Below, in pieces: positions 1 through 5,200 of a DNA stretch of 5,200 nt (within the stretch, counting starts at the first letter, position 1; each line of letters starts with the position of its first letter). The notes below the pieces were generated by a model that had not been told where the DNA came from, did no database searches, and saw nothing but the letters and a program-made list of their open reading frames with translations. Made by a program: the position numbers and the translations under genes. The DNA lies in the IMG/VR virus record IMGVR_UViG_3300000357_000284, positions 1 to 5,200 of that record, one strand, 5' to 3'. This DNA comes from a virus. Its lineage: Duplodnaviria > Heunggongvirae > Uroviricota > Caudoviricetes.

Positions 1-1248
1 ATGGCACTGAATATTCCATTCAGAAATGCGTACTATCGTTTTGCATCCAGTTACTCATTTCTCTTTTTTATTTCCTGGTCGCTGTGGTGGTCGTTATACG
101 CTATTTGGCTGAAAGGACATCTAGGATTAACAGGGACGGAATTAGGTACACTTTATTCGGTCAACCAGTTTACCAGCATTCTATTTATGATGTTCTACGG
201 CATCGTTCAGGATAAACTCGGTCTGAAGAAACCGCTCATCTGGTGTATGAGTTTCATTCTGGTCTTGACCGGACCGTTTATGATTTACGTTTATGAACCG
301 TTACTGCAAAGCAATTTTTCTGTAGGTCTAATTCTGGGGGCGCTCTTTTTTGGCCTGGGGTATCTGGCGGGATGCGGTTTGCTTGACAGCTTCACCGAAA
401 AAATGGCGCGAAATTTTCATTTCGAATATGGAACAGCGCGCGCCTGGGGATCTTTTGGCTATGCTATTGGCGCGTTCTTTGCCGGTATATTTTTTAGTAT
501 CAGTCCCCATATCAACTTCTGGTTGGTCTCGCTATTTGGCGCTGTATTTATGATGATCAACATGCGTTTTAAAGATAAGGATCACCAGTGCATAGCGGCG
601 GATGCGGGAGGGGTAAAAAAAGAGGATTTTATCGCAGTTTTCAAGGATCGAAACTTCTGGGTTTTCGTCATATTTATTGTGGGGACGTGGTCTTTCTATA
701 ACATTTTTGATCAACAACTCTTTCCTGTCTTTTATGCAGGTTTATTCGAATCACACGATGTAGGAACGCGCCTGTATGGTTATCTCAACTCATTCCAGGT
801 GGTACTCGAAGCGCTGTGCATGGCGATTATTCCTTTCTTTGTGAATCGGGTAGGGCCAAAAAATGCATTACTTATCGGTGTTGTGATTATGGCGTTGCGT
901 ATCCTTTCTTGCGCGCTGTTCGTTAACCCCTGGATTATTTCATTAGTGAAGCTGTTACATGCCATTGAGGTTCCACTTTGTGTCATATCCGTCTTCAAAT
1001 ACAGCGTGGCAAACTTTGATAAGCGCCTGTCGTCGACGATCTTTCTGATTGGTTTTCAAATTGCCAGTTCGCTTGGGATTGTGCTGCTTTCAACGCCGAC
1101 TGGGATACTCTTTGACCACGCAGGCTACCAGACAGTTTTCTTCGCAATTTCGGGTATTGTCTGCCTGATGTTGCTATTTGGCATTTTCTTCCTGAGTAAA
1201 AAACGCGAGCAAATAGTTATGGAAACGCCTGTACCTTCAGCAATATAG
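1..1248 (+). CDS. cscB: Sucrose:H+ symporter (MFS, LacY-type oligosaccharide/H+ symporter family), complete, 415 aa
   Basis: Full ORF from ATG 1-3 to TAG 1246-1248. Translation is strongly hydrophobic with about 12 membrane segments and LacY-family-like stretches (EYGTARAWGSFGY, FDQQLFPVF, GPKNALL, VFKY). N-terminus MALNIPFRNAYYRF and length match my recollection of E. coli CscB. The four ORFs in the track inside this span are out-of-frame or antisense artefacts. Confidence 0.9.
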   Translation: MALNIPFRNAYYRFASSYSFLFFISWSLWWSLYAIWLKGHLGLTGTELGTLYSVNQFTSILFMMFYGIVQDKLGLKKPLIWCMSFILVLTGPFMIYVYEPLLQSNFSVGLILGALFFGLGYLAGCGLLDSFTEKMARNFHFEYGTARAWGSFGYAIGAFFAGIFFSISPHINFWLVSLFGAVFMMINMRFKDKDHQCIAADAGGVKKEDFIAVFKDRNFWVFVIFIVGTWSFYNIFDQQLFPVFYAGLFESHDVGTRLYGYLNSFQVVLEALCMAIIPFFVNRVGPKNALLIGVVIMALRILSCALFVNPWIISLVKLLHAIEVPLCVISVFKYSVANFDKRLSSTIFLIGFQIASSLGIVLLSTPTGILFDHAGYQTVFFAISGIVCLMLLFGIFFLSKKREQIVMETPVPSAI

Positions 1249-1258
1249 ACGTAAACTT

Positions 1259-1300
1259 TTTCCGGTTGTTGTCGATATCTCCATATCCCTCAACCGGAAA
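1259..1300. repeat. Perfect 10-bp inverted repeat (TTTCCGGTTG ... CAACCGGAAA) with a 22-nt loop, 11 nt after the cscB stop; possible 3' stem-loop or protein-binding palindrome, not a canonical intrinsic terminator
   Basis: Arms at 1259-1268 and 1291-1300 are exact reverse complements. The flank is A-rich downstream and T-rich upstream on the + strand, so there is no U-tract after the stem on either strand. Confidence 0.4.
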
Positions 1301-1327
1301 ATAATAATACAAAAATGCTTAGCCCAA

Positions 1328-1564
1328 CTAATAATCACCTAATCCAAACGCCTCATTCATGTTCTGGTACAGTCGCTCAAATGTACTCCGGATACGCGGT
1401 TCGCTGATTTCCAGGACATTGTCGTCATTCAGCGACCTGTCCCGAGTATCACGGGCCTGCGAATTCATCAAGGAATGCATTGCAGAGTGAAGTATCGAGT
1501 CACGCCATATTTCGCTATCAGGATTCTGTATGATGGTTACATCGCCCAGCCCAGGGCTGTTTAG
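1328..1564 (-). pseudogene. 3'-terminal gene remnant: open frame of 78 codons ending ...ERLYQNMNEAFGLGDY, TAG at 1330-1328, no start codon or RBS at the 5' end; identity unknown
   Basis: Manual translation of the minus strand gives an uninterrupted frame from 1564 to 1331, bounded upstream by an in-frame TGA at 1567-1565. The first ATG is internal (1480-1478, giving only 50 aa) and has no Shine-Dalgarno. No tyrosine-recombinase motifs are visible. Confidence 0.3.
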
Positions 1565-1689
1565 TCATCAGCGCTTTCTGACAGTGCTGAGATTTCAACC
1601 TGTTGCAGTAAAAATGAGTAGATATAGGGCAAGTGTGCTGCCAAACCCATCTTTTACGGGGTGAAGGTAGATTTGGTTTGAAGGGTATC

Positions 1690-1704
1690 TGGTGTCCCCT
1701 GCAG
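1690..1704 (-). other. Prophage attachment-site core: 15-nt exact copy of the 3' end of tRNA-Arg argW (CTGCAGGGGACACCA on the minus strand), attR-type junction
   Basis: Minus-strand 1704-1690 reads CTGCAGGGGACACCA, identical to the acceptor 3' half plus CCA of argW as I remember it. The sequence diverges from the tRNA immediately upstream, so this is a partial copy and not a tRNA gene. An excisionase gene lies 74 bp away. Confidence 0.6.
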
Positions 1705-1761
1705 ACATCTACTTGACGCGGCAGGGGATTGATTGGAATGGTGTTTTTTAGATGTGAAAAA

Positions 1762-1783
1762 TATTTTACCCGCTATTTTACCC
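1762..1783. repeat. Tandem direct repeat TATTTTACCC x2 (1762-1771 and 1774-1783) overlapping the torI stop codon; candidate arm-type or excisionase binding sites
   Basis: Two exact 10-bp copies separated by 2 nt, 58-79 bp from the att core. A 7-bp inverted repeat ACATCTA/TAGATGT (1705-1711 and 1750-1756) lies in the same arm. Confidence 0.35.
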
Positions 1784-1978
1784 ATTGGCGCGGCTTAAGA
1801 GCTTATTTTTGAATTCACAATGGTCACGATATAACCATCTTGCTCGCCCGTGGATAACTTTGGCTTTTGGCAGGTCGCCGGACTTAATCCGGTCATAGAT
1901 GAAGGTTTTACCGAAGCCAGTATCGGCCATGATGAATTTCAAATCAACCAGTGAATCAGGTTGTAGTTCGTGTTGCAT
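1778..1978 (-). CDS. torI: AlpA/Xis-family winged-helix excisionase (recombination directionality factor), 66 aa; matches my recollection of TorI of the KplE1/CPS-53 prophage
   Basis: ATG 1978-1976 preceded by GGAG (1991-1988, 9-nt spacer); TAA at 1780-1778. The 66-aa product contains the AlpA-like core ADTGFGKTFIYDRIKSGDLPKAKVIHGRARWLYRD. It sits next to the argW-derived att core with no integrase nearby, which is the known KplE1 layout (int at attL, RDF at attR). Confidence 0.7.
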   Translation of the reverse strand: MQHELQPDSLVDLKFIMADTGFGKTFIYDRIKSGDLPKAKVIHGRARWLYRDHCEFKNKLLSRANG

Positions 1979-1983
1979 GAGTG

Positions 1984-2202
1984 CTATCTCCGAATAGGGA
2001 ATCGAACCTGCAAATCAGGCAATAAAAAACCGCCATCAGGCGGCTTGGTGTTTTTCAGTTCTTCAATTCGAATATTGGTTACGTCTGCATGTGCTATCTG
2101 CGCCCACAGCATCCAGTGGTCATAGCAGTCATTGATGTTCTCTGCTTCGATAACTCTGTTGAATGGCTCTCCATTCCATTCACCTGTAACTCGGAAGTGC
2201 AT
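1984..2202 (-). CDS. Doubtful 72-aa ORF (MHFRVTGEWNGEPFNRVIEAENINDCYDHW...), possibly a gene remnant; reads through the terminator hairpin and the tRNA-like block
   Basis: ATG 2202-2200 with GGAG at 2213-2210 (7-nt spacer), but the start lies inside the U-tail of an upstream terminator and the last ~25 codons are encoded by the 2030-2043 hairpin and the argW T-arm-like block. TAG at 1986-1984. Confidence 0.3.
   Translation of the reverse strand: MHFRVTGEWNGEPFNRVIEAENINDCYDHWMLWAQIAHADVTNIRIEELKNTKPPDGGFLLPDLQVRFPIRR
1998..2013 (-). other. 16-nt block identical to the argW T-arm region (TTGCAGGTTCGATTCC on the minus strand), separated from the 15-nt core by 293 bp that contain torI
   Basis: Minus-strand 2013-1998 reads TTGCAGGTTCGATTCC. 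In argW this sequence is directly followed by TGCAGGGGACACCA, but here it is followed by CTATTCGG, so no cloverleaf can form. It overlaps the torI RBS region. Confidence 0.4.
2024..2055 (-). terminator. Intrinsic terminator: GC hairpin CCGCC-ATCA-GGCGG (2030-2043) followed on the minus strand by TTTTTTATT; weaker in the + direction
   Basis: 5-bp GC stem with 4-nt loop; A-run 2024-2029 gives a U6 tract right after the stem on the minus transcript. On the + strand the T-run (2051-2055) is 7 nt from the stem. Confidence 0.55.
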
Positions 2203-2213
2203 TTATCATCTCC

Positions 2214-2240
2214 ATAAAACAAAACTCGCCGTAGCGAGTT
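2214..2240 (-). terminator. Intrinsic terminator: 7-bp stem AACTCGC / GCGAGTT (2223-2229 and 2234-2240) with 4-nt loop, followed on the minus strand by TTTTGTTTTAT
   Basis: Perfect 7-bp inverted repeat with tetraloop; T-rich tail on the minus strand (plus 2212-2222); about 70 nt downstream of the stop of the 2310-2570 gene. Confidence 0.5.
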
Positions 2241-2309
2241 CAGATAAAAGAAATCCCCGCGAGTGCGAGGATTGTTATTCACCTTTGACGGCAAGTTGCA
2301 GGTTAGCCA

Positions 2310-2570: not shown

Positions 2571-3130
2571 TTCGCCTCCTGCGGCGGCTCTGGTAGCGGC
2601 ATCCAGTGGGTTACTCCATGCCATATACCAGTTAAGGTTTCAAACCTTGGCTCTCTGCCTTTCTGTGTCTTGGCATATTCATTCCTTGTATATACGCATT
2701 GTCTAACTGCATATCCATTCCATCCAATAACTGTTTGTCTAATTTCAGGCATTCGCTCACTACAGCTTATCCAACCATCCGGAGTTACCGGAGTTGGTCC
2801 ATCGAATTCTGGCATGTCAGGACCTTTTCTGATAGCTTTAGCCAGCTCCAGCGGGTCATCGTAAAGCCAGTCGCCAGTTTGTGGGTGATTTGCTTCTGCA
2901 AGCTGCGCAGCCCATTCAAGACCATCTTTTTGACCTTGGAGATAATCAAGCGGCAACTCTTCATGATTACTTGCAGGTTCTGCACTATCAGCTTCGCGCC
3001 GCTTCTGTAGCTCTGCTGCCATCGCTCTCACGACTTCAACTGGTGCCCTTGCAGCAAACTCTATGTTGGTGATCAGCTCATTAAGATATTGCTCGCTGGG
3101 ATACTGTTTCTTATTGGTAATAGTGGTCAT
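2567..3130 (-). CDS. Phage protein with C-terminal DUF551-like domain (GWISCSERMPE ... THWMPLPEPP), 187 aa
   Basis: ATG 3130-3128 overlaps the TGA (3129-3127) of the upstream gene. The C-terminal ~70 aa carry the W-I-S...LPE and HWMPLPEPP pattern I associate with DUF551 proteins of enterobacterial prophages. The N-terminal ~110 aa are acidic and unassigned. Confidence 0.75.
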   Translation of the reverse strand: MTTITNKKQYPSEQYLNELITNIEFAARAPVEVVRAMAAELQKRREADSAEPASNHEELPLDYLQGQKDGLEWAAQLAEANHPQTGDWLYDDPLELAKAIRKGPDMPEFDGPTPVTPDGWISCSERMPEIRQTVIGWNGYAVRQCVYTRNEYAKTQKGREPRFETLTGIWHGVTHWMPLPEPPQEAK

Positions 3131-4569: not shown

Positions 4570-5200
4570 CGCTTTGCTCTCCTGCGTCTCCTTTGATGCG
4601 AATGCCAGGGGCGCGTGGCACATTAACTTCCACGATGCGCACAGTTGGTTTGTACATCTCAATCGCTGTCAGCCAGTCAGCTCCTGTCATGCGCTTTTCC
4701 GCATCGCCATTAGTCCACTGAACCGGTACACCAATAGCCTTCATCGCGATTTCTATTTCCCCGGCAATGGCGCTTTTTCCGCAACCAGTAAAACCAGATA
4801 CAACGACAAGAACTTCGCCTTTGGCTGGTTTTATTTCCCGTGCTTCCAGTTCTGCTATGCGCTTCTCTGCGGATTCCAGCGCCGCAACCAATTCGTCTAC
4901 AGTTCCGGCAGCTTGCAGTGCGTAATCGGTAATAGCCATCTCATGATCAATTTCAGTACCGTTCTCATTCGTTGAGGTGATAGCAAAATAATCAGAGTCG
5001 ATTTCGTTATCAGCTAAGTGGCGTAGCGTATCGGCAACAAGCCGGCCGTTTTCGATTAGCAGCTTCCCAACCGTAAGAGCAATTTCCTCGTTCTCCTGGT
5101 CGCGGGATTTGATGTACTGCTGGTTTCTTTCCCGTTCATCCAGAAGCGCCAGCACAGTAGCCGGATTGGCTGCGGCGATGAATTCAGCATTGGCCTGCTG
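4556..5200 (-). CDS. Ea22-like early-region phage protein, 5'-truncated by the window edge (at least 214 codons); C-terminal part contains a Walker-A-like GFTGCGKS
   Basis: The frame is open from 5200 down to TAA 4558-4556; the track start at 5155 is an internal GTG. The N-terminal stretch FIAAANPATVLALLDERERN followed by a coiled-coil-like region resembles Ead/Ea22-like proteins as I remember them. Codons for G-F-T-G-C-G-K-S map to 4795-4772 after a hydrophobic strand VLVVVS. Confidence 0.6.
   Translation of the reverse strand, partial: QQANAEFIAAANPATVLALLDERERNQQYIKSRDQENEEIALTVGKLLIENGRLVADTLRHLADNEIDSDYFAITSTNENGTEIDHEMAITDYALQAAGTVDELVAALESAEKRIAELEAREIKPAKGEVLVVVSGFTGCGKSAIAGEIEIAMKAIGVPVQWTNGDAEKRMTGADWLTAIEMYKPTVRIVEVNVPRAPGIRIKGDAGEQSDEKP

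Follow-up and report, generated by a model that had tools for sequence, protein, structure and literature searches.

The excisionase gene of a P22-like prophage is preceded, four nucleotides upstream of its Shine-Dalgarno (SD) sequence, by a second, independent copy of the T-stem/T-loop of argW, the tRNA gene that houses the prophage. This 16-nt sequence (the T block) is a fixed component of the left edge of the integration-excision module and part of the phage attP region, and crossover does not take place in it. The window, that is, the whole stretch of 5,200 nucleotides that was analysed, holds the attR junction of a prophage with the IntS-TorI module of HK620, Sf6 and KplE1, inserted in argW beside a csc-type permease gene. 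The locus is thus an ordinary and already known right-hand prophage junction of the HK620/Sf6/KplE1 type, a classification that the findings on the block leave unchanged. We tentatively read the block as a mimic of the left arm of attB; the complete explanation, composed of the attR junction, the second T-loop copy and this mimic role, has in our judgement about an even chance of being right.

The attR junction in argW

The crossover region of the prophage is the 15-nt core at the 3′ end of argW, as the original prediction had it: matches of the prophage type begin at its first position and matches of empty-site genomes stop at its last. The comparison with an empty argW site that had been called for gives the same answer, in that empty-site genomes match the window over 1250–1704 and then run into tRNA-Arg. 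The annotation of one such site (L001) runs from an MFS transporter through tRNA-Arg to yfdC, and its intact argW (1941–2015, minus strand, ending in GGGCTAATTGCAGGTTCGATTCCTGCAGGGGACACCA) agrees with the tRNA sequence on which the original prediction was built, with the two blocks contiguous. The HK620 and Sf6 records give this same 15-nt sequence as their attP core, and KplE1 has been described as bordered by the 16-nt core CTGCAGGGGACACCAT (PMC2951348). The heptamer TGCAGGG within it, the probable overlap, is unchanged in nearly all family members looked at (TGTAGGG in the distant relative L314) and lies inside a perfect inverted repeat, GGTGTC / GACACC, in EhrS_49 and g341c. On its phage side, homologues of the C arm in relatives (RTTCGATGTA, ATTAGGTGTC and others) keep a T-loop-like TTCGAT in at least eight lineages.

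ARAGORN found no tRNA gene in the window, and Pfam found no integrase among its open reading frames. The lack of an integrase at this end had been pointed out before and holds as an observation, but not as an oddity: attP lies between xis and int in phages of the HK620/Sf6/KplE1 type (10.1101/2021.11.03.467220; PMC2951348), so intS is expected at the far end of the prophage, beyond the 5.2 kb of the window, which is the norm in the family. The same xis-attP-int order is seen in the HK620 and Sf6 records, where the core runs on into the P′ arm and int, and in the relatives CUS-3 (L006) and HK620 (L008) intS adjoins argW and the core at the other end.

The gene next to the junction is of the TorI type of recombination directionality factors (RDFs), reads toward the core and is annotated as ‘response regulator inhibitor TorI’ in the matching RefSeq sequence. 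Between it and the core, the two direct GGGTAAAAT repeats, the second of which overlaps the torI stop codon, are probably arm-type integrase sites: the motif recurs in the P arm of HK620 and, inverted copies included, in its P′ arm before int, and it becomes GGGCATAA in other Xis/Int clades. Arm-type sites of KplE1 have been described (PMC2951348). Nearer the core, the P-arm element is near-invariant in the alignment of relatives (ATCAATCCCCTGC) and resembles the first half of the IHF consensus, which makes it a candidate IHF site. At the opposite edge of the module, the intrinsic terminator closes the early-left (‘ea’) module, and in alignments with lambda-like prophages (L003, L004) the mosaic boundary coincides with it. 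Among 62 distinct IMG/VR sequences, similarity of the module reaches leftward to between −50 and −80 relative to the ATG. The mosaic boundary lies 20–40 nt upstream of the T block. In the window, one nucleotide is deleted from a small open reading frame that lies upstream of the terminator.

Table 1. Features of the attR junction and its surroundings, with positions in the window.
Feature	Position	Strand	Basis or remark
cscB-type MFS permease gene	1–1248	plus	neighbour of host flank
Host DNA, right flank of attB	1249–1689		downstream of argW at the empty site
attR core CTGCAGGGGACACCA	1690–1704	minus	exact match (0 mismatches, single); argW 3′ end
TGCAGGG, probable 7-bp overlap	1697–1703	minus	
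Phage-side core arm (C arm) AGTAGATGTC	1704–1713	minus	
P-arm element AATCAATCCCCTGC	1721–1734	minus	family-conserved; candidate IHF site
Two direct GGGTAAAAT repeats, probable IntS arm-type sites of the P arm	1763–1771 and 1775–1783	minus	
torI (xis/RDF), 66 aa	1778–1978	minus	open reading frame list; 100% identical to TorI/HkaC
torI Shine-Dalgarno region CGGAGATA	1985–1992	minus	conserved along with the T block
T block (T-arm block) TTGCAGGTTCGATTCC	1998–2013	minus	exact, 0 mismatches
Family-wide core of the block, GTTCGATTCC	1998–2007	minus	equals the 10 nt of argW/attB directly 5′ of the overlap
TTGCCTGATTTGC, annotated cII-binding site of a ‘phage integration’ promoter	2010–2022	minus	HK620 record; HK620 and Sf6 feature tables
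Intrinsic terminator AAGCCGCCTGATGGCGGTTTTTT	2024–2046	minus	terminator scan

A second T-loop copy at the left edge of the module

The earlier observation that a 15-nt and a 16-nt block identical to argW lie on the minus strand in the order of the tRNA is borne out by exact matches at both places. The two are collinear with argW, where they are contiguous, and are separated in the window by 293 nt (1705–1997) that contain torI and its SD sequence, which confirms that the excisionase lies between them. The match to the T block stays single even when three mismatches are allowed, and shuffled sequences gave a mean of 0.07 matches at up to three mismatches. The expectation for an exact 16-mer in the window is 10,400/4^16 = 2.4e-6, or about 1.5e-4 for any tRNA 16-mer; the 16-nt match is therefore not a chance event. 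The nearest other tRNAs of E. coli, which we take to be the lysT and argU types, have GAATCC in place of GATTCC and different 5′ flanks.

A contiguous tRNA fragment split by the excisionase, as the original prediction supposed, does not fit these data. In many relatives the core has a T-loop-like left arm of its own (TTCGATGTA directly before TGCAGGG, versus TTCGATTCC before TGCAGGG in the tRNA). No half is thus missing at the core, and the upstream block is a second copy. The order terminator, T block, SD sequence, torI, P arm and core is found base for base in KplE1 of K-12, in HK620 and in Sf6. The arrangement is thus already present in free phages and belongs to the phage attP region instead of being a scar of this lysogen, which speaks against the idea that repeated integrations, or an inserted excisionase module, rearranged the att region. 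Nor is there support for derivation from an element that targets another tRNA: no second integrase or att system is associated with the block. Simple schemes of tandem integration or aberrant excision for the origin of the block were drawn up on paper and rejected: all of them put the T-arm next to int, not xis.

The block is identical in CUS-3 and in KplE1 (L002), HK620 and Sf6; in the last three it precedes the xis ATG by about 29 nt, as it does in the window. Its core GTTCGATTCC was recovered at −28/−29 from the xis ATG, with at most one mismatch, for 37 of 55 distinct Xis proteins whose identity ranges down to about 40%; the hosts or phages concerned include Escherichia, Citrobacter, Serratia, Pantoea, Erwinia and Edwardsiella as well as Salmonella phages. 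Some of the Xis clades that retain this core have no more than about 40–50% identity to one another. phiEt88, whose Xis is 39% identical, likewise has GTTCGATTCC at −29. Across the block-bearing relatives the flanks diverge and the sequence upstream of GTTCGATTCC is unalignable, while GTTCGATT is invariant in 20 of 20 aligned leaders that carry the block. Conservation of this kind points to purifying selection on the block. Tandem copies occur in Midgardsormr38-like phages. The block has also been lost repeatedly (Chronis, EhrS_49, Tatumella), including by microhomology deletions in Dryocola and in L294, L299 and L303, and it is therefore dispensable for recombination. E. coli leaders retain the tRNA-identical flank TTGCAGG, and those of Serratia and Pantoea retain CCTG. 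An ancient tRNA origin of the block is likely. The leader of an AlpA-type homologue from Pseudomonas, a very distant one, has no T-loop-like motif.

Crossover and the CUS-3 record

One published record appears to assign the block a role in integration. In CUS-3 (GenBank CP000711) the right end consists, as in the window, of the same terminator and block, and the annotated 16-bp core, labelled as both attL core and attR core, is exactly the T-block 16-mer; the left end carries the argW T-arm, the core, an HK620-type P′ arm and int. Since the block and its argW copy bracket most of the prophage as a perfect 16-bp direct repeat, the block might be a genuine att core or have been left behind by another integration event, whether of CUS-3 type, by tandem integration or through a strain-specific rearrangement. 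We give this reading almost no credence. UTI89 matches the right end of CUS-3 with 100% identity, and its sequence continues past the block into torI, the P arm, the (mutated) true core and then dsdC, so that the CUS-3 record is evidently truncated at the repeat; unlike chromosomes with the same prophage end, it omits about 300 bp that include the excisionase. Among 5,426 E. coli genomes, chimeric junction queries found none in which the block links argW to the torI leader. Nor did any of the ten best phage records contain a contiguous run of terminator, T block, core and P′ arm; the reciprocal junction was split in every case by about 290 nt with torI. The sequence that follows the block has nothing in common with the overlap TGCAGGG, int and the P′ arm of CUS-3 are of the HK620 type, and free phages have the identical arrangement of block, torI and core.

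For CUS-3 itself, the attP junction is predicted at CTGCAGGG(G)ACACCAT, outside the T block. Strains of the RS218/UTI89 type have a 1-nt deletion in the attR core, and excision may be blocked in them. The 16-bp direct repeat formed by block and argW can pass for an att site, as happened in the CUS-3 reference record, which consequently is without the excisionase and the true attR; many IMG/VR prophage calls end inside attR.

Alternative readings of the block

The position of the block in the torI leader suggests several other functions, or none. It could act in the 5′ leader RNA and tune translation or stability, whether through weak occlusion of the SD sequence (UUCG:CGGA or UUCC:GGAG), an RNase E-type site or a T-loop-like motif for a host RNA-binding enzyme. 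The strictly kept distance to the SD sequence and ATG (−28/−29) speaks for such a role, as does the independence of the block from phage DNA-binding specificities, which is what an RNA element read by the host would show, and when leaders are folded singly the block often pairs with the SD region. Despite these suggestive folds, RNAalifold on 20 diverse leaders returned no consensus structure (0 pairs), and a conserved hairpin or SD occlusion was rejected on this result. Moreover, the sequence between the SD and ATG (GCACTC, AAAACC, CACTT and others) varies freely without compensating change in the block, a T-arm-like stem is found in a few lineages only (Serratia, Edwardsiella, P. stewartii), and 8 to 11 invariant nucleotides exceed what SD occlusion needs; we regard an RNA-level role as unlikely. 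An antisense sRNA was rejected because the weak, full-length Rfam STnc130 match at 1928–2055 (plus strand) reached 25.2 bits versus a gathering score of 55, the terminator carries the alignment and no promoter was found. We hold a similarly low opinion of the possibility that the block is a functionless, frozen relic of a longer tRNA-identical attP, or an old tRNA fragment, kept at a boundary where modules are swapped. The Sf6 record labels this stretch boundary sequence bsq2, near-identical leaders precede Xis proteins that are only 48% identical (L218, L231), as exchange at this point would produce, the module has survived several losses of the block, and the lineage-specific flanks TTGCAGG and CCTG look as if they came from a real T-arm copy. 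A neutral 10-mer, however, would not survive such divergence, and here 10 of 10 positions are kept where xis and the surrounding non-coding DNA have diverged beyond alignment; the tandem duplication in some phages also suggests use.

Two readings invoke known phage regulators. TorI represses PintS and binds 8-mers built on GTTCG, GATCG or GTCCG, five of which are mapped on attL (PMC2951348). Autoregulation through an operator in the block would rest on its GTTCG pentamer: the block holds GGTTCG, as site I4 does, a second TorI-like pentamer often follows 12 nt downstream, repression of PintS offers a precedent, and on attL the T-loop pentamer of the tRNA is in helical phase with I1–I5 (spacings of 31, 20, 43, 10 and 10 nt). 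With a weight matrix from 33 P′-arm sites, though, the block scores 3.3–6.8 bits against a median of 9.8, and position 8, which is C or T in all real sites, is always A in the block. The decisive case is the Xis clade with the recognition helix GFT[AS]KYFYSQI, whose P′-arm repeats are [AGT]T[TA]ACC with no GTTCG; in its members L289, L292, L296 and phiEt88 the leader block is still GTTCGATTCC, and an operator for TorI is accordingly very unlikely. The covariation of recognition helix and P′-arm repeat predicts the RDF sites of this unstudied Xis clade. Just as improbable, or slightly more so, is that the block forms part of a CII-activated ‘pI’ promoter for the integrase, a reading that rests on the promoter and cII protein_bind features which the depositors of HK620 and Sf6 placed at TTGCCTGATTTGC, overlapping the first 4 nt of the block, and on the lambda pI CII box TTGCGTGTAATTGC at the homologous position directly after a shared terminator. 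The spacing in HK620 and the window is TTGC-N5-TTGC, whereas known CII boxes have repeats spaced by N6. The TTGC repeats are missing from Erwinia, Edwardsiella, Serratia and g341c-type leaders that keep the block, and the part that is conserved falls in the would-be spacer. A consensus scan of both strands over 1600–2350 gave no promoter resembling the sigma-70 type. Transcription that started here would include the excisionase gene, the wrong product for integration, and the annotation is older than the finding that hkaC encodes the RDF.

A possible attB-arm mimic in the excisionase leader

The reading that we favour starts from what the block does and does not follow. Its conserved 10-mer GTTCGATTCC is the exact 10 nt 5′ of TGCAGGG in argW and ends where the overlap of attB would start. 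It is constant across the C arms AGTAGATGTC, ATTAGGTGTC, ATTCGATGTA and others, being far steadier than the C arm itself, and constant whether the P′-arm repeats are of the GTTCG or the WTTACC type and whether the arm-type sites are GGGTAAAA or GGGCATAA. As a test of a shared integrase site, block and phage C arm were compared for covariation, and none was found. What does stay the same is the target: all Xis relatives retrieved, whose identity goes down to about 39% and among which are the Proteus, Pantoea, Arsenophonus and phiEt88 clades, insert at an argW orthologue, with TGCAGGG and GAC(A/G)CC in nearly all and minor variants such as that of L314, and the Edwardsiella-type argW has another acceptor stem and the same T-arm. 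The block remains tRNA-identical while RDF, arm-type and C-arm motifs change and appears to track only the invariant argW target, which suggests a mimic of an attB arm for the core-binding domain of the integrase or for a host factor.

In this proposal, the factor that recognizes the left arm of attB would also read the block, the simplest candidate being the core-binding/catalytic domain of IntS. IntS might be delivered to the block from the arm-type sites 200 bp away, and once bound it could loop out or roadblock torI, whereby a constitutively made integrase would help to silence the excisionase in the lysogen. IntS is indeed made constitutively and represses through its binding sites, and excision control has been proposed to act on torI (PMC2951348). 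Judged from sequence comparison, that the block mimics the left arm (B site) of attB, is read by IntS and silences torI is possible but well short of probable. The broader form of the claim, in which either integrase or some other reader of T-loop DNA binds the mimic and target recognition is thereby coupled to RDF control, we consider doubtful.

Several observations weigh against the mimic. The block is a single half-site without overlap or partner arm, and isolated core-type sites usually bind integrase weakly. The gap that separates it from the next conserved element ranges over 5–8 nt. The invariant GTTCGATT is distal to the would-be crossover and position −2 varies (C/T/A), which is not obviously what a core-type site would predict; the block also resembles the B arm, not the consensus of phage C arms (G.TGTM). 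The fixed distance to the SD sequence would fit a role at the RNA level equally well. If the attB-arm mimic is real, it would represent regulation of a kind that is not known from tyrosine-integrase modules and would explain why the block stays tRNA-identical while the other protein-binding sites of the module drift. Leaders of xis in modules that target other tRNAs would then be expected to contain whichever T-loop variant their own target has (GTTCGAATCC, GTTCGAGTCC and others); CAAGCTAAGG is a mutated control form of GTTCGATTCC.

Comparison with known systems

A full-text literature search for the T-block 16-mer found it in no paper. The module to which it belongs, that of KplE1/HK620, is the best-studied non-lambda intasome. 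Strongly conserved and only 4 nt away from the ribosome-binding site of torI, the block readily suggests itself as a candidate for excision control. KplE1 (CPS-53), HK620 and Sf6 share with the window the 15–16-nt core, a 100% identical TorI, the GGGTAAAAT repeats, the T block, the SD sequence and the left edge of the module, the region being 97–99% identical in DNA. The host flank of the window is the csc-type permease side and not dsdC, and its early-left genes upstream of the terminator form a different mosaic from ypdJ-yfdT of K-12.

The pI/CII box of lambda occupies the same place, in that it immediately precedes xis and directly follows the terminator which lambda-like prophages share, and it was by analogy to lambda that the depositors of HK620 and Sf6 annotated the block region. 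Unlike in the lambda box, the conserved element here is a T-loop copy, and TTGC-N5-TTGC is not conserved in the family beyond the E. coli clade. The tRNA-fragment scars of integrative elements are likewise short, exact tRNA fragments in or at an element and collinear with the tRNA. Such scars are 3′ fragments that reach the end of the tRNA and lie at the element boundary, whereas the T block is an internal T-stem/T-loop piece without the 3′ end, located inside the phage genome and present there before integration.

The attR junction at argW

Both argW-derived pieces are exact and unique in the window, at the coordinates and on the strand first reported, and the argW sequence used in the original prediction proved right: at an empty site it reads ...AATTGCAGGTTCGATTCCTGCAGGGGACACCA, with the two blocks adjoining in the tRNA. 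A gap of 293 nt separates them in the window and holds the excisionase gene torI and its SD. By our own arithmetic, an exact 16-mer would be expected about 2e-6 times by chance in DNA of this size. Megablast of window 1250-2300 against 5,426 complete E. coli genomes gave matches falling cleanly into two classes: prophage-free genomes match 1250-1704 and then continue into tRNA-Arg, and in prophage carriers the match begins at 1690, with torI annotated there. The 15 nt common to both classes are therefore the att core and mark the host/prophage junction. The permease on the host side is presumably CscB, the sucrose transporter encoded at csc; in some E. coli this locus takes the place of dsdC beside argW. 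Such a replacement has been described (PMC9659370). The other ORFs, as far as position 5200, belong to the usual early-left 'ea' set (DUF551, DUF4014, Ead/Ea22). Pfam identified no integrase among the ORFs of the 5,200-nt window, and ARAGORN found no tRNA gene in it.

The locus is the already known attR of the HK620/Sf6/KplE1 family. KplE1 has the 16-nt core CTGCAGGGGACACCAT at its borders and shares the module with HK620, Sf6, CUS-3 and UTI89 (PMC2951348). Since attP lies between int and xis, the two genes come to stand at opposite prophage ends (Kapi1 preprint 10.1101/2021.11.03.467220), so that the lack of an integrase at this end, correctly predicted, is the family rule. The accompanying idea of a tRNA split by rearrangement in the lysogen is not supported, because the same order is found in K-12 and in free phages: a single unbroken stretch of the HK620 and Sf6 genomes reads terminator, block, SD, hkaC/gene 18 (torI), P arm, core, P' arm and int, and KplE1/CPS-53 of K-12 has the identical block ahead of torI. 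Enterobacterial torI modules with terminator, block and argW-type core also occur in MAG contigs assigned to 'Actinomycetes' (L017) and 'Parachlamydiaceae' (L034), which are very likely mis-binned or contaminant. Many predicted prophage contigs in IMG/VR (L042, L043, L046 and many others) stop 3 nt past the torI stop codon; these automated boundaries cut within attR, leaving out the P arm and core.

Features of the attR region and of tandem leader blocks in related loci
Feature	Location	Strand	Remarks
MFS sugar permease ORF	1-1248	+	identical gene at empty site is 'MFS transporter' in RefSeq
hkaB/gene-17-like small ORF	1654-1785	minus	annotated in HK620 and Sf6; overlaps torI stop; spans att core, so its C-terminus in the prophage is encoded by host DNA
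att core	1690-1704	minus	host/prophage junction
torI	1778-1978	minus	excisionase
Weak full-length Rfam match, STnc130	1928-2055	+	driven by the terminator, where the match ends
Small ORF upstream of torI	1984-2202	minus	72 aa; reads across terminator, T-arm block and SD
T-arm block	1998-2013	minus	16 nt
Intrinsic terminator	2024-2046		terminator-like on both strands: 2030-2043 (+), 2027-2046 (minus)
Tandem leader block, CAGGTTCGATTCCC twice	L009 2485-2514; L139; L140		period 16; Midgardsormr38-like
Tandem leader block	L136		period 13

The annotated att cores of CUS-3

The CUS-3 record (CP000711) annotates exactly TTGCAGGTTCGATTCC as attL core and attR core; it begins with argW T-arm, core, HK620-type P' arm and int, and ends at the block. 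UTI89, which matches the right end of CUS-3 at 100% identity, goes on with torI, the P arm, a core minus one G (CTGCAGGGACACCAT; L120, about 3046-3060) and then dsdC. Evidently the perfect 16-bp T repeat was chosen over the imperfect true core, which left the record without torI; the lost G is the probable reason for this preference. The same loss may lock the CUS-3-type prophage of UTI89 in.

Conservation and origin of the block

In many relatives the phage arm directly left of the overlap reads ..(A/G)TTCGATGTA before TGCAGGG, compared with ..GTTCGATTCC in the tRNA. The tRNA-like attP segment thus already extends into the T-loop by itself, and the upstream block is a second copy and not half of a split tRNA. 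In EhrS_49 and g341c, TGCAGGG lies between the perfect inverted repeat GGTGTC/GACACC, which suggests that it is the 7-bp overlap.

Sampling of one genome per species plus IMG/VR, with four diverged homologues queried alongside TorI, yielded 250 loci encoding 55 distinct Xis proteins. GTTCGATTCC (<=1 mismatch) stands 28-29 nt ahead of the ATG for 37 of the 55, including clades whose identity to TorI is just 44-48%, and phiEt88, where it is 39%. GTTCGATT does not vary in 20 diverse leaders that carry the block; the DNA upstream is unalignable between lineages and consists of terminator plus ATTGCCTG, of a ypdJ-like remnant or of other sequence. Midgardsormr38-like phages and L136 carry two tandem copies. 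Other phages have lost the block, twice via a CCTGG...CYGG microhomology deletion (Dryocola, L020; L294/L299/L303), and these independent, deletion-like losses leave ...TTTTTTATTGCCTGGAG...ATG. The tRNA-identical flanks differ by lineage (TTGCAGG in E. coli; CCTG in Serratia and Pantoea), which speaks for the block's origin in a genuine copy of the T-arm.

Possible functions of the block

Five functional ideas were examined: crossover site, RDF operator, CII promoter, RNA structure and attB-arm mimic. Use of the block for crossover is rejected by two junction tests: a chimeric query joining argW to the torI leader through the block matched 0 of 5,426 E. coli genomes, and none of the ten best phage records has terminator, block and core contiguous. 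TorI sites are 8-mers built on GTTCG, GATCG or GTCCG (PMC2951348), and GGTTCG is present in the block. As an RDF operator it nevertheless fails, scoring well below real sites with a matrix from 33 P'-arm sites and, more weightily, staying GTTCGATTCC in both Xis-helix classes when the P'-arm repeats switch. Those repeats and the recognition helix of Xis vary together (GTTCG-type repeats accompany GKTFIY, and [AGT]T[TA]ACC accompanies [AS]KYFY), a pattern that predicts where RDF binds in an Xis clade not yet studied; L289, L292, L296, L298 and L307 pair GFT[AS]KYFYSQI with [AGT]T[TA]ACC, versus GFGKTFIY or GMGKTFIY with GTTCG-type P' arms in L007-L012, and between these sets the arm-type sites change from GGGTAAAA to GGGCATAA. 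The HK620 and Sf6 records annotate the block region as a CII-activated 'integration' promoter, and that of Sf6 additionally as boundary sequence bsq2. Against a CII promoter, the TTGC repeats have N5 spacing and occur in the E. coli clade only, and a sigma-70 consensus scan of 1600-2350 on both strands found no promoter-like site in the torI leader region. An STnc130 antisense RNA was likewise rejected. Action of the block at the RNA level is unlikely; RNAalifold found no conserved structure in 20 diverse leaders.

The block covaries with no phage-specific site (RDF repeats, arm-type GGGTAAAA versus GGGCATAA, C arm). Its sequence is that of the 10 argW nucleotides abutting the overlap, and it ends exactly at the overlap boundary, and the only constants among its carriers are the argW target and integrase core specificity. 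We therefore favour, tentatively, an attB-arm mimic: the core-binding domain of IntS, or some other factor that reads the T-loop of the tRNA gene, might recognize the block and so gate torI. That the block is a functionless recombination linker seems improbable to us. At attL the T-loop pentamer of the tRNA and the five TorI sites that have been mapped share a helical phase (spacings 31, 20, 43, 10 and 10 nt), and these six are the only G[TA][TC]CG pentamers on that strand (L006 1-130, CUS-3 attL; same in K-12); given this phasing, TorI in GTTCG-type modules could use the argW T-loop as a sixth contact. The interest lies in a small, strongly conserved, unexplained T-loop copy in an excisionase leader, which has already misled one reference annotation (CUS-3) and is an inexpensive experimental target for control of prophage excision.

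The left edge of the module

In 62 distinct IMG/VR sequences whose TorI is identical, resemblance to the window stops between -57 and -80 from the ATG; the block, at -34 to -19, is therefore the first conserved element inside the module's left edge. The usual homologue of the ORF upstream of torI has 55 aa and its stop within the terminator loop, and the read-through to 72 aa here is due to a 1-nt deletion (GAAAAACACC versus GAAAGAACACC in HK620, CUS-3 and UTI89). In K-12 (L013/L002), L012 (about 2440-2500), L262, L268 and L269, the DNA directly upstream of the block encodes the first ~17 codons of an HTH-type, ypdJ-like excisionase-like gene (..SHSLTLDEAC.FLKIS), a remnant that suggests replacement of an older xis by the torI module at this edge. 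Lambda-type prophages match the window up to the intrinsic terminator and diverge beyond; in lambda itself, the pI CII box and the start of xis are found at the corresponding position past the shared terminator.
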